From a virus, in the IMG/VR virus record IMGVR_UViG_3300031825_000010, positions 1-61,488 of that record: a stretch of DNA of 61,488 nt; one strand, written 5' to 3'. Below, one piece after another: positions 6,715 to 50,804 of this stretch. The translations under genes were made by a program, and so were the position numbers. The notes beneath the pieces were generated by a model. The model saw only the letters and a list, made by a program, of their open reading frames with translations, searched no databases and was not told the origin of the DNA. Positions within the stretch are counted from its first letter, which is position 1; the number at the start of each line of letters is the position of its first letter.

Positions 6715-8880
6715 ATGAACGGATTAGCAGAAGTGAAAACTGAAAAGACGGTCGCCGTTCTTTATGGCGGAGCTGGTGGATACAGCAAGGGAATTACTCA
6801 GTCAAAGTCTGAAATGTACGGAAAAGTGTACAACTTCAGAATGCTTTGCAGCATCGATTACGATCCCGTAGCGAATCACAATCATGATCTTTTGCTTGGC
6901 GATAATCTATCGGTGACCATGGACCTTTTTGATAGGGAGCAGTACATAGCATTCCATGGTCAGGAGCCGCCAGCAGATTGGAAGGAAACAACTGGTTGGG
7001 AAATATGGAACGCGTTTGGCCAAGAAGTTCCGGACCTCATTTTTCTAAGCCCACCATGTAAGGGGTTCAGCGGACTGTTGCCTAAGAAGTCGGCGGAATC
7101 GATGAAATACCAGGCGCTCAACAGACTCACGCTGCGCGGGCTTGAGTTGGTGTTAAAAGCATGCATTCGATACGGCGAAGACTTGCCATCATTTATTCAT
7201 TTCGAAAATGTGCCAAGGATCCAAACCAGAGGGAAAGACCTTCTCTCAAAGATTCTTAGGCTGCTTAAACGGTTTGGTTTTGAAACCAACATGCGGGCTG
7301 ATCATAACCTTGGGGAAATTGGCGGACTCGGGCAGAGCCGCCCCCGTTTCCTCATCCTTGCCCGGAATAAACAAAAGATTCCGAACTTTACGTACTTGCC
7401 GCCAAAGAAACGATTACGAACGATCGGGGAAATTATCGGACCGTTACCAATGCCGGGGGACACGGTTAGAGGCGGGAAGATGAACAGGCTGCCAATGCTT
7501 ACTCGAAAATCATGGGAACGTCTGGCCGTCATACCTGCAGGTGGGGATTGGAGAGATTTGAATAAATCCGATTGGCAAAACCTCCGACTTTTTCATGAAC
7601 CAAGAGGTGGCGGAGCGTGGGGAGTGCAGGCTTGGAATGAACCGGGAAAAGCCGTTATCGGCAATGCCAAAATACACGGAAGCAATGCCAGTGCGGCGGT
7701 CAGCGACCCGAGGTTAGGGCTTGACGGAAACGGTATGGCGAACATTTACCGGATGCAAAGATTCGAAGAAACCGCAACGTGTGTCACCGGAGCAGTAGGA
7801 CCAAGTAATGGCGCTCCATGCGTCTCTGACCCACGATTAAAAGAACGTGAAGGCAGGCATCCTGCAGTATACCGTATTGTTCGAGTGGACGAGCCTGCTC
7901 CTTGTGTAACCGGCACACGATTCGGAAGCGGAGCAATTGCCATTGCTGATCCATGCACTCATACGAAATTTAACCATGCATTTAAAGTCAGCGACTGGAA
8001 TGAAACAGGTGGAACAGTGGCCGGGGGAACAGGGCCATCGAGCGGAGCGCACGTCATAGCTGATCCGAGGTTTGACGAAAACAGTTCGATGTACAATGGC
8101 GGGTACAAGGTGACTGAATGGGATGAGGTAGGGGGAACCGTTACGACCGGTGGCAGTCCGAGCAGCGGAGCACATGTGATTGCCGATCCGAGAGTTAAGA
8201 CAGACCTCATGCCCGACAGCTACGGCGTACAGGATTGGGATGATACTGCCAAGACGGTACGGGGAGCATCTCGAATTATGAACTCTCCAGCTTCTATAAG
8301 CGATCCGAGAGTTAACGACCGACCAGGACGGTATACCGATCAATACCGAATGCAGGCGTTTGATGAAACGGCAGCGACCGTAACGGGAGTAACGGACATC
8401 CAAGCCGGGGCGCAGTTAATCGCGGACCCTAGAATGAATTGCTCACCGAGATCCGGAACAATGGGTGTTCAGGATTGGAACGAGCCGTCCGTAACGGTTA
8501 CTGGGAGCATGGACATTCACGCAGGAGAAGCAGCTGTAGCCGATCCGCGCATCCCGGACGAGAATGAACGATGCGTCATGGTCATTATTGCGGAAGATGG
8601 GACCTGGCACAGACCGCTTACAACATACGAACTCAGTCAGCTTCAGGGGTTCCCGACACACTTACCAGATGGCCGTCCGTTCCAGCTTGAGAAATGCAGT
8701 GATTCCAAGGCAAGGGAATACATCGGAAATGCTGTTCCGCCTGCAGCTGCTGAAGCAATGGGGAATGTAATCCTGACTGCAATCGCCATGGCCGAGGCTG
8801 GCATCACTTTTGAATTTGGTCATGAAGAAGTATGGGTTATGCCTCAAGGGGAACAACCTGAAATAACGATTCTACATTAA
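6715..8880 (+). CDS. DNA (cytosine-5) methyltransferase with an expanded, eight-fold repeated variable region
   Basis: Motifs: I LYGGAGG, IV SPPCKGFS, VI ENV, VIII QSRPRF, X GNAVPP. Eight ~40-aa repeats ending in DPR lie between motifs VIII and IX. Confidence 0.9.
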   Translation: MNGLAEVKTEKTVAVLYGGAGGYSKGITQSKSEMYGKVYNFRMLCSIDYDPVANHNHDLLLGDNLSVTMDLFDREQYIAFHGQEPPADWKETTGWEIWNAFGQEVPDLIFLSPPCKGFSGLLPKKSAESMKYQALNRLTLRGLELVLKACIRYGEDLPSFIHFENVPRIQTRGKDLLSKILRLLKRFGFETNMRADHNLGEIGGLGQSRPRFLILARNKQKIPNFTYLPPKKRLRTIGEIIGPLPMPGDTVRGGKMNRLPMLTRKSWERLAVIPAGGDWRDLNKSDWQNLRLFHEPRGGGAWGVQAWNEPGKAVIGNAKIHGSNASAAVSDPRLGLDGNGMANIYRMQRFEETATCVTGAVGPSNGAPCVSDPRLKEREGRHPAVYRIVRVDEPAPCVTGTRFGSGAIAIADPCTHTKFNHAFKVSDWNETGGTVAGGTGPSSGAHVIADPRFDENSSMYNGGYKVTEWDEVGGTVTTGGSPSSGAHVIADPRVKTDLMPDSYGVQDWDDTAKTVRGASRIMNSPASISDPRVNDRPGRYTDQYRMQAFDETAATVTGVTDIQAGAQLIADPRMNCSPRSGTMGVQDWNEPSVTVTGSMDIHAGEAAVADPRIPDENERCVMVIIAEDGTWHRPLTTYELSQLQGFPTHLPDGRPFQLEKCSDSKAREYIGNAVPPAAAEAMGNVILTAIAMAEAGITFEFGHEEVWVMPQGEQPEITILH

Positions 8881-8897: not shown

Positions 8898-9896
8898 ATG
8901 AGTGATAAAAGCAAGATCGAATGGACAGATGCTACGTGGAACCCGGTCACCGGATGTACGAAGGTGTCGGAAGGCTGCCGGAATTGCTACGCTCTTACTT
9001 TTGCGGAACGGTTTCGCGGGACACCCGGGCATTATTTCGAAAATGGATTCGATATCACGCTTCGGCCTAATAAAATGCTGGAACCACTGAAGTGGCGAAA
9101 AGCGAAGAAAATTTTTGTGAACAGCATGAGTGACTTGTTCCATCCGGAAGTACCGGACGATTTCATTGATCAAGTGTTCGGCGTTATTCTCGCAAATCAT
9201 GTCCTAGACCGGCAAGCCGAACACACATTTCAACTATTAACAAAACGGCCCGAACGCATGCAAGAATATCTCGGAGCCGGACCGGACGTACTGCTCGAAC
9301 GCTGGGGAGAATCACTCGACGGCGTTGTCATCATGGATAATCCGGATGTTTGTTTCTCCGAATATGTGGACCATTTCTTGGACAAAGATGAATTTTTCCC
9401 GCTGCCTAATCTCTGGATTGGCACCAGTGTCGAGAACCAGAAGGCAGCTGTCGAGCGAATACCGCATCTACTTATGACACCGGCGGATGTTCGGTTCCTG
9501 TCATGTGAACCATTACTCGGATCAGTTGATTTTTGGGATGTACCTAGTCCGAGAGACGGCCAACCGTTCGAGGTGCTTCAGCCGCTCGGATCGGATTGGT
9601 CAGGCATCAACTGGGTCATTGCTGGCGGTGAGAGCGGCCATGGAGCTCGTCCGGTTCATCCGGACTGGATTAGGTCTCTACGAGATCAATGTCAGGCTGC
9701 AGGTGTGCCGTTCTTCTTCAAACAATGGGGGGAATGGTGGCCATACCCCGATGAGATCAACAAAATGACGGTCAATCGAAACACAAAAGAAGGTGGGAAG
9801 GTCAAGCGCTTTGAGAATTGGTACTTCGAACGGAACGGCAAGAAAGCGGCTGGACGCATACTTGATGGGCAAACGTGGGACGAGTTGCCCCAATAA
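8898..9896 (+). CDS. Phage Gp37/Gp68-family (DUF5131) protein
   Basis: KIEWTDATWNPVTGCTKVSEGCRNCYA at the N-terminus and IAGGESG..RP near the C-terminus. Confidence 0.8.
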   Translation: MSDKSKIEWTDATWNPVTGCTKVSEGCRNCYALTFAERFRGTPGHYFENGFDITLRPNKMLEPLKWRKAKKIFVNSMSDLFHPEVPDDFIDQVFGVILANHVLDRQAEHTFQLLTKRPERMQEYLGAGPDVLLERWGESLDGVVIMDNPDVCFSEYVDHFLDKDEFFPLPNLWIGTSVENQKAAVERIPHLLMTPADVRFLSCEPLLGSVDFWDVPSPRDGQPFEVLQPLGSDWSGINWVIAGGESGHGARPVHPDWIRSLRDQCQAAGVPFFFKQWGEWWPYPDEINKMTVNRNTKEGGKVKRFENWYFERNGKKAAGRILDGQTWDELPQ

Positions 9897-49631: not shown

Positions 49632-50804
49632 TTAGAGACGGACATACCGCTCATATAGAGCCAATGCATCATTTTCAATTTTCTTCGTAACATGAAGATA
49701 CGTGTCCGCTGTGACTTTCACGCTTGCGTGCCCAAGTCGCTCGGACACGTATTTTATATTTGCGCCTGCTTCTAGCAGGTGCACGGCATGAGTATGTCTG
49801 AGAGCGTGCGGAGATAATACTGGGACACCGGCTCGTCTGCATTTCACCTTAAACAAGTCCCGGACGACATTCGTACGCAACCATCGACCGTCATGTTGGT
49901 GGAAAACAAGGTTAGTTGTGGATGGCTTGTAATTATCGTATGCCAACACGACTTCTTTTTGATTAATTCGGTGACTTTTCAGCAATTTAACTGTTGCATC
50001 GTCTAAAGCAATAACCCGGTCACTGTTTTTTGTTTTCGGAGTAGAAACGTATGGTGTAGAATTTAGCGGGTAAACAAGGGTCTTATTGACTGCAAGTGAC
50101 TTCCCCTTTTCGTCGAAATCGTCCCATGTTAACGCGAGCGCTTCGCCGATCCGCATTCCAGTTCGGGCTAATAGCGTAAACAAACAATATGGTTGCTTTG
50201 AGAGCTGGTACTTTGCATTTTTGTGCGGCGTTTTCAAGTGCTCAAGAAATTTATCTAACTGTTCTCTAGTAAAATAACTGACCTTTTCTTTTTTCTCGAC
50301 ATCCTTGGGAATTTTGATTCGTTCTATTGGATTATTCCGGACAATATTGAACTCGTGTACGGCGTCGTTAAGTGCCGAGTTCATGATGCTGTTGATTCGC
50401 CGAACCGTTCCCTCGCTGTAACTCTCGCGTAGTTCATTTATCCATTTCTGATACTCATTTCGTGTTAAGTCCTTCATGCGGTATTTACCCCACCGAGGAA
50501 TGATATTGAGCCTGACGTTTCGTTCTTGAACGGAATATGTTATCGGCTTTACAAATGGCCTCTTATACGTCTCTAGCCACTTACTGAAGTAACTTTCTAA
50601 CAATTCATTTCCGTCTTCAGCGAAGCCATAATAATGAATGTCTCGCTCAGCGGCAGAGGCAGCAATCTGCGCCTCTTTCTTTGTTTTAAACCCTCCTTTA
50701 GTTTTCTCTTTTTGTGTTCCAGATCGACGATCAATATAACTGATACGGTATTCCCACTTCTCTCCTCGCTTTCGATAAAAAGCCAAACCTACTACCCCTT
50801 TCAA
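49632..50804 (-). CDS. int: Tyrosine integrase
   Basis: TGMRIGEALAL.. and HALRHTHAVHLLEAGANIKYVSERLGHASVKVTADTYLHV give the R..HxxR..Y catalytic pattern. Confidence 0.92.
   Translation of the reverse strand: MKGVVGLAFYRKRGEKWEYRISYIDRRSGTQKEKTKGGFKTKKEAQIAASAAERDIHYYGFAEDGNELLESYFSKWLETYKRPFVKPITYSVQERNVRLNIIPRWGKYRMKDLTRNEYQKWINELRESYSEGTVRRINSIMNSALNDAVHEFNIVRNNPIERIKIPKDVEKKEKVSYFTREQLDKFLEHLKTPHKNAKYQLSKQPYCLFTLLARTGMRIGEALALTWDDFDEKGKSLAVNKTLVYPLNSTPYVSTPKTKNSDRVIALDDATVKLLKSHRINQKEVVLAYDNYKPSTTNLVFHQHDGRWLRTNVVRDLFKVKCRRAGVPVLSPHALRHTHAVHLLEAGANIKYVSERLGHASVKVTADTYLHVTKKIENDALALYERYVRL

Follow-up and report, generated by a model that had tools for sequence, protein, structure and literature searches.

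The virus record IMGVR_UViG_3300031825_000010 of IMG/VR, considered here from position 1 to 61,488 as one continuous 61,488-nucleotide stretch of DNA (the window), carries the gene of a 721-residue DNA cytosine-C5 methyltransferase (C5-MTase) in which eight contiguous modules of 38–41 amino acids (aa), together covering aa 293–612, lie between catalytic motifs VIII and IX. Modules of this kind vary in number, type and order among the relatives of the enzyme, and several of them are more strongly conserved than its catalytic core. On balance, we lean towards the view that the protein is an orphan, broad-spectrum anti-restriction C5-MTase, in which an array of miniature target-recognition domain (TRD) cassettes is predicted to widen the set of methylated sequences. 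Publications on this repeat family were not found in full-text literature searches, and the family is apparently undescribed so far.

The enzyme class named in a preliminary description of the window is confirmed by its motifs, its profile matches and its predicted fold. The canonical motif order I, IV, VI, VIII, IX, X is kept, and each motif lies at the residues first assigned to it, i.e., LYGGAGG (I) at 16–22, SPPCKGFS (IV) at 112–119, ENV (VI) at 164–166, QSRPRF (VIII) at 207–212, TTYELSQLQGFP (IX) at 636–647, and GNAVPP (X) at 671–676. A Pfam scan of the whole protein returns PF00145 alone, at aa 102–231 (1.1e-13) and in a motif IX–X part that corresponds to profile positions 269–322, while TIGR00675 aligns to aa 623–684. 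The catalytic Cys115, together with Glu164, Arg209, and Arg211, is invariant in an alignment of 119 homologs. With the same alignment, AlphaFold2 models the core at a predicted local distance difference test (pLDDT) score above 90 for aa 10–290 and 612–700, with aa 613–721 at 85–97, and a Foldseek search with this core retrieves M.HaeIII, DNMT1, MET1, DNMT2, and M.HhaI at E-values of about 1e-10 (1dct and 2uyc among the entries). No match among solved structures was obtained with phmmer, and the protein is therefore a divergent member of its class. By these features the open reading frame encodes a C5-MTase, for which methyl transfer to the C5 position of cytosine is predicted.

The eight diverged modules end in DPR, or once in DPC, exactly where the preliminary description had placed these tripeptides (aa 331–333, 372–374, 412–414 (DPC), 450–452, 491–493, 530–532, 571–573, and 610–612); the start of the array, however, has to be moved from aa 300 (nucleotide 7612) to aa 293 (nucleotide 7591), and the three sequences quoted there as examples are modules 5, 7, and 8. 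In a leave-one-out comparison with hidden Markov models (HMMs), each module scores 25–55 bits against the profile of the other seven, whereas none of 500 shuffled versions of that module exceeds 13 bits, so that the repeat is not a chance pattern. Pairwise identity between modules amounts to 24–58% in protein and 32–56% in DNA, the two modules of type i (modules 4 and 5) sharing 58% and 56%, respectively, and Tandem Repeats Finder reports nothing for the array DNA. Owing to this low identity and the blank repeat search, the copies are regarded as old, in keeping with the initial judgment that they are not recent duplicates, and an origin of the array by recent DNA duplication or slippage was rejected on the same grounds. 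Microhomology at the junctions between modules is seen at the codon level only. As a separate observation, an 8-nucleotide string, GATCCGAG, is common to three consecutive junctions at the D-P-R codons (8062–8070, 8185–8193, and 8302–8310) and could favor unequal recombination between cassettes. The subdivision of the gene is given in Table 1.

Table 1. Parts of the C5-MTase gene, with positions in the window and residues of the encoded protein.
Feature	Position	Strand	Remarks
Complete C5-cytosine DNA methyltransferase gene, 721 aa	6715..8880	+	stop codon counted in
aa 1–292, large-domain catalytic part	6715..7590	+	motifs I, IV, VI, VIII and post-VIII segment ending in IPAGGDWRDLNK
Module 1, aa 293–333, type a	7591..7713	+	constant first module of the family; leave-one-out 31.6 bits
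Module 2, aa 334–374, type g	7714..7836	+	alternative second modules are f or g; leave-one-out 47.4 bits
Module 3, aa 375–414, type c	7837..7956	+	ends DPC; most conserved and most widespread type
Module 4, aa 415–452, type i	7957..8070	+	variable cassette; first of duplicated pair
Module 5, aa 453–493, type i	8071..8193	+	variable cassette; second of duplicated pair
Module 6, aa 494–532, type d	8194..8310	+	variable cassette; signature PDSYGVQ...RIM.S
Module 7, aa 533–573, type e	8311..8433	+	variable cassette; signature RYTD..R.Q...TD[IV]Q.GAQL
Module 8, aa 574–612, type b	8434..8550	+	constant last module; adjoins motif IX
aa 613–721, C-terminal part	8551..8880	+	linker, WHRPLT-x-YE element, motif IX (TTYELSQLQGFP), motif X (GNAVPP), C-terminal helix, stop

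Clustering at 45% identity sorts the 731 modules of 121 close sequences into 11 types, all of which share one scaffold that consists of an aromatic residue and V, followed by T-V-T-G, a G, a hydrophobic residue, and D-P-R. Of the 39 columns in the alignment, twelve are common to all types (10, 12, 21–24 (T-V-T-G), 31, 35, and 37–39 (D-P-R)). The presence of T-V-T-G in all 11 types upholds the expectation of a T-[LVI] core in each unit. Columns that are conserved within types and different between them fall on either side of this T-V core, at 1–9/11/13 and 25–30/33–34. In canonical TRDs, two recognition loops surround a conserved T-L dipeptide (PMC2790894), and the type-specific residues of the modules would likewise sit in two loops flanking the T-V core, as judged from the alignment of types. 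Other correspondences that had been drawn with ordinary enzymes do not hold. The 'W-D-E-P' stretch (columns 14–19) shows no conservation within or between types, and the W-[DN]-E-P-x-x-T-[IV]-T segment, which was thought to occur once in Dcm-type enzymes, is missing from the Dcm protein of E. coli (MG1655), where SVTRTLSARYYKDG forms the core; nor is this protein matched by the module HMM. Comparison of the same HMM with two ordinary phage C5-MTases gave null or non-significant results. The D-P-R of the modules is also no counterpart of the canonical HP..R element, which is present once, after the array, as WHRPLTTYE (aa 631–639).

The family to which the enzyme belongs is large. A wide homolog search yields at least 2,447 clusters at 90% identity, mostly from Paenibacillaceae, with protein lengths that step by about 40 residues, and a search of 50%-identity representatives yields 903 clusters at E ≤ 1e-3, the best 150 of which provide the module counts for diverse representatives. 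As side observations, one homolog, P0100 (1028 aa), contains LAGLIDADG/Hint (intein-like) Pfam domains inside the methyltransferase, and several representatives of 930–1200 aa (among P0136, P0143, P0135, P0172, P0191, and P0259) have N-terminal extensions of 470–700 residues before the core. Module number, which the preliminary description had proposed to compare across homologs, does vary, from 2 to 11. The module HMM finds 4, 5, 6, 7, and 8 modules in 1, 28, 60, 29, and 3 of the 121 close sequences, respectively, and protein length follows module count in the 120 closest homologs (4–8 modules). Among the 150 representatives, counts run from 0 to 11, five being the commonest, and 20 of the 150 have at least eight; the eight modules of the window enzyme, once called extreme, are therefore merely a high number.

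Variation also concerns which modules are present and in what order. Close family members follow the architecture a-(f/g)-c-[any subset of i, d, e, h, k, j, in differing order]-b, which in the window takes the form a-g-c-i-i-d-e-b, and type b is last in all 121. The order d-e in P0003 is reversed to e-d in P0015, type j stands before or after e, and type k stands before d or after e, as was checked in the sequences themselves. When 1,524 modules from 268 proteins are considered, about 91 types are obtained, 47 of them with at least three members, and type c recurs in 77 of 144 diverse representatives. Natural variants thus differ by the gain, loss, and reordering of well-conserved modules, a pattern that supports the view that the modules may act as recognition cassettes independent of one another.

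Full-length members have as few as two modules, and P0160 consists of an a-like and a b-type module only. Such proteins would suit an explanation in which only the core-adjacent module or modules (the constant b, perhaps with a) form the TRD, while the internal modules serve as spacers, pseudodomains, or protein-binding or replisome-tethering elements. Inactive pseudo-TRDs have been described in Bacillus phage enzymes, b is invariably the last module, and the ordinary Type II methyltransferase model of PADLOC (MTase_II, PDLC03272) spans aa 580–693, running from module 8 through motifs IX–X; moreover, a gene for the DNA polymerase III beta clamp adjoins the methyltransferase gene. We nevertheless consider this explanation improbable. 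The internal modules c, d, and e of the window enzyme share 78%, 71%, and 72% identity with their counterparts in homologs and exceed all other parts of the protein in conservation, the catalytic core reaching 61%, and they retain their type-specific loop residues; since their conservation exceeds that of the core, they are not spacers or decaying copies. In addition, Pfam, NCBIfam, PADLOC, and PHROGs contain no model, repeat families included, that covers aa 293–612, and searches of the array with these collections revealed neither a clamp-binding nor another known motif.

Functional data are available for enzymes of a similar design from Paracoccus aminophilus prophages. According to Dziewit et al. 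(2014), JCM7686_0772 and JCM7686_2655 were expressed in E. coli and showed 'relaxed substrate specificity' (PMC3925955), and Decewicz et al. cite tests of two P. aminophilus prophage enzymes. Sinorhizobium Phi2LM21_p23 and Aeromonas ARM81 phage enzymes are, as stated by the authors, relatives of the Paracoccus enzymes of about 700 aa, and a repeat architecture is not mentioned in the passages considered here from the two characterizing papers. Partial protection was reported against 16 of 28 endonucleases (PMC3925955, additional file 8), the protected sites including AGCT, GGCC, CCGG, CCWGG, CCSGG, CCNGG, GCGC, GCGCGC, ACGT, CAGCTG, CTCGAG, RGGNCCY, GCN7GC, and others, while CGCG, TCGCGA, GATC, GGNNCC, CCWWGG, CTAG, CATG, GANTC, CCGCTC, ACGCGT, and CCATGG were fully cleaved (PMC3925955). 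In our own reading of these results, the pattern is not reducible to one short motif and fits several discrete specificities better than a single relaxed one, although the protection was incomplete and the authors themselves did not conclude this, because in each of the pairs GCGC/CGCG, CCGG/CCATGG, GGCC/GGNNCC, and ACGT/ACGCGT the first site is protected and the second is cleaved; the protection of CCGG and CCWGG set against the cleavage of CCWWGG and CCATGG leads to the same conclusion.

A published primer, used as a sequence tag, leads to a P. siganidrum homolog (L016 2061–4301, minus strand), in which the reverse primer is absent. The P. aminophilus proteins themselves were recovered from a protein search, P0310 being JCM7686_0772 and P0328 being JCM7686_2655, and both begin with MTYQPHLP, as the primers encode. 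They contain about eight tandem units of 33–39 aa with a [DEA]-P-x-x-T-[IV]-[TV] core. Relatives of this type have 6–11 units, most often eight, in a number that tracks protein length (r = 0.93), and the family comprises at least 8,000 matches. Comparison of the unit cores of the window and Paracoccus families by hhalign gives a weak similarity (P = 5e-4, probability 32%) over 17 columns in the same order, and the window module HMM aligns to a Paracoccus-type member with a domain E-value of 3.5e-4.

Several results weigh against the modules being DNA-reading cassettes of a multispecific enzyme. The homology to the TRDs of SPR, phi3T/SPbeta, rho11s, and H2 that had been anticipated was not found: when the SPbeta, SPR, rho11s, and H2 genes were retrieved and their true sequences compared with the module HMM, domain E-values were 0.16 or higher, the non-significant alignments being confined to the Bacillus TRD cores (RVYSPDGVSPTLTT, RFKEDDEPAFTV), and hhalign of the modules against these cores gave a probability of 0.2%. 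A simple search of the whole enzymes likewise revealed no relation of the window methyltransferase to the Bacillus multispecific enzymes. Against all sequences of the Protein Data Bank, module profiles built from 8 and from 70 sequences have chance NF-kB matches as their best result, and the sole methyltransferase match, to residues 227–242 within the TRD of M.HaeIII, is non-significant (E = 1.9). Chimeras of modules and the C-terminal part, searched against Pfam to learn if a module could fill the stretch of PF00145 before motif IX, align over motifs IX–X only, with scores less than 1 bit apart, and thus speak neither for nor against the cassettes. Thus, the likeness of the modules to TRDs stands as far as cassette-like variation and a T-V core with type-specific loops are concerned, and falls as far as sequence homology to defined TRDs is concerned. 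The Paracoccus family, too, is distant: the best whole-protein blastp alignment between the window protein and the member from P. siganidrum has 23% identity and E = 0.06, and this family is absent among the homolog-search matches of the window protein.

The use of short palindromes by the phage, which is modestly reduced, adds a further point of the same tendency. Over the whole window, AGATCT occurs once against 15.2 expected (z −4.6), and GGCC (z −4.1), AGCT (−3.6), CATG (−3.4), and CGCG (−3.1) are avoided, while CCGG is in slight excess (+2.2). GGCC, AGCT, CGCG, and AGATCT are under-represented and may therefore be unprotected sites, although the signal is modest and its interpretation would depend on the host.

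Also adverse is the structure prediction for the array, in which pLDDT drops to 22–45, both in the window protein and in a second AlphaFold2 run on P0115, a homolog with four modules whose core is again modeled with confidence. The low values include the constant modules, whose alignment depth equals that of the core. Units that are flexible without DNA would fit such a model, with which a packed repeat fold such as a solenoid would also be compatible. Modules a, c, and b, furthermore, keep their positions in almost every close relative, a constancy that might reflect a structural role. This fixed frame, a-(f/g)-c and b, together with the single scaffold shared by all modules, as in structural repeats, brings into play the possibility of one composite DNA-binding domain, into which all eight modules would fold, probably when on DNA, and which would have a single, very short or degenerate specificity or a capacity for processive sliding, so that no individual module would define a target. 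The published accounts of the Paracoccus enzymes, the sole experimental data for a similar design, would agree with it, since relaxed specificity is the authors' own term and protection was partial throughout (PMC3925955, PMC5537653). We regard a composite domain as rather unlikely, because the internal modules vary in order and number among close relatives while their conservation is kept, which is hard to square with one fixed fold; because about 91 module types with type-specific loops exist; and because repeats packed into one fold are not seen in the AlphaFold2 models, the constant modules included, on a 119-sequence alignment. The Paracoccus protection pattern, which by our reading does not amount to one short motif, also speaks against it.

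The surroundings of the gene are those of a phage replication module. The window represents a temperate siphovirus, in which genes for the terminase, the portal, the tape measure, and the integrase (49632–50804, minus strand) are present, and the gene order around the methyltransferase is replisome organiser, DNA polymerase III beta clamp, DUF1064, methyltransferase, and DUF5131. Homologs in Sinorhizobium phage PBC5 and in Pseudomonas phages Dobby and H66, as well as in Brevibacillus, Paenibacillus, and Desulfitobacterium prophages, also occupy replication or early regions, with differing neighbors. No restriction endonuclease gene was seen beside the methyltransferase gene at the window locus or at six homologous loci; on account of this lack and of the varying neighbors, the enzyme is an orphan phage methyltransferase.

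Among the neighbors, the DUF5131 gene (8898–9896, plus strand) begins 18 bp downstream of the methyltransferase gene and encodes a Cx6CxxC motif near the N-terminus of its product, which scores about 1e-82 against two candidate defence families of PADLOC, PDC-M41B and PDC-M30B, and has a weak similarity to TIGR04471 ('radical SAM mobile pair protein A'). Since the two genes share a strand and DUF5131 has been placed in the radical SAM superfamily (PMC9477430), the methyltransferase might perform the first step of a DNA hypermodification, or transfer a group other than methyl, with the DUF5131 protein as partner, and the Foldseek matches of the core do include 8yf3, a DNA cytosine C5-carboxymethyltransferase. 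This explanation appears very improbable, in that the 8yf3 match is no better than those of ordinary methyltransferases, no other hypermodification genes were seen near the methyltransferase gene, and DUF5131 is absent beside the methyltransferase in PBC5, Dobby, H66, and the three Firmicute prophages. Its absence from these 6 of 6 homologous loci also led to the rejection of DUF5131 as an obligate partner.

Other features of the genome and of the homologous loci are recorded here in their own right. A PAPS-reductase-family gene follows the homologous methyltransferase in Dobby (L007 5806–7038) and in the Brevibacillus prophage (L009 7336–8277), whose hosts are very distant, and this pairing might be an association that recurs. 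On the plus strand, at 117–1895, there is another DNA methylase gene (Pfam N6_N4_Mtase), which the start of the window truncates; in full, on the parent contig (L005 2662–5181), it encodes 839 aa with a faint SNF2-related N-terminal region. As this gene is present besides the C5-MTase, the methyltransferases of the phage number at least two. A metagenome contig of 61,502 bp (ENA ERZ27250632 k141_570001) has the window sequence in rotated form; it encodes the identical 721-aa protein and is probably a complete temperate siphovirus genome. No near DNA match to the window was found among 50,697 phage records.

In the anti-restriction reading that we favor, eight cassettes of about 40 residues would take the place of the usual single target-recognition domain, and each would present two type-specific loops around its T-V core, in the loop 1/T-L/loop 2 layout of M.HhaI and M.HaeIII. 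The cassettes would be flexible without DNA and would act as alternative or cooperating DNA readers for one catalytic core, whereby several distinct short sequences could be methylated by one enzyme. Following induction or infection, the replicating phage DNA would then be shielded against many host restriction systems at once. A bolder form of this proposal, to which we would give only tentative credence, holds that the modules are the smallest self-contained DNA readers among methyltransferases and belong to a library of at least about 90 types that phages shuffle; each would dock in turn and have its own target, so that the window enzyme would recognize about seven sequences. Under this proposal, the array would be disordered until bound to DNA, and at least two phage lineages without sequence relationship, the present one and the Paracoccus type, would have converged on the design.

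The points of interest of the family are its size, the regularity and number of its cassettes, and the existence of natural variants that differ cassette by cassette. Enzymes of the tandem-cassette design are commonly encoded by Firmicute and Proteobacterial phages and prophages, and databases seem to under-describe such genes, as suggested by labels that read only 'DNA cytosine methyltransferase' and by an array left without a domain model. How one catalytic core serves several recognition domains is a question that the natural variants make directly testable. If one cassette indeed corresponds to one sequence, the variants would constitute a ready-made map from cassettes to motifs, the cassettes would be compact parts for the engineering of methylation specificity, and the resistance of some temperate phages to many restriction systems would find an explanation.

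In relation to known systems, the Paracoccus enzymes are a separate sequence family of the same tandem design. Both families are large phage or prophage C5-MTases encoded in replication modules, with a tandem array of T-[IV] cores between motifs VIII and IX; in the Paracoccus units, however, the Y-x-V...D-P-R scaffold is missing, and their last residues are [LIV]-[IV]-A-[PA]. The solved monospecific C5-MTases M.HhaI and M.HaeIII have one TRD, whereas the window enzyme has eight modules, each of which shows the conservation pattern of their TRD, i.e., two loops around T-L (PMC2790894).

Since the 1980s, a few Bacillus phages have been known to encode multispecific methyltransferases, and we know of no solved structure of such an enzyme, no search aimed at one having been made. 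The Bacillus phage C5-MTases (M.SPRI, M.Phi3TI/M.SPBetaI, M.Rho11sI, and M.H2I) are phage-borne orphans like the window enzyme, and both kinds have several contiguous units between motifs VIII and IX, each with a T-[LVI] core (e.g., RVYSPEGLSPTLTT, RFKENGEPAFTVNT). In the Bacillus enzymes, tandem TRDs address several targets, so that one polypeptide shields the phage against several restriction systems (PMC12707154, PMC8936443), and by analogy the window enzyme would resemble them in its way of working while standing outside their sequence family. The Bacillus enzymes measure 439–503 aa and have 2–4 T-[LIV] cores each, as counted by eye, whereas the window family has 2–11 strictly periodic units of 38–41 aa, each ended by D-P-R. 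Its units are thus much more regular, number up to 11 per protein, and occur in natural variants one cassette apart, and its repertoire of about 91 module types is far larger than that of the Bacillus enzymes.

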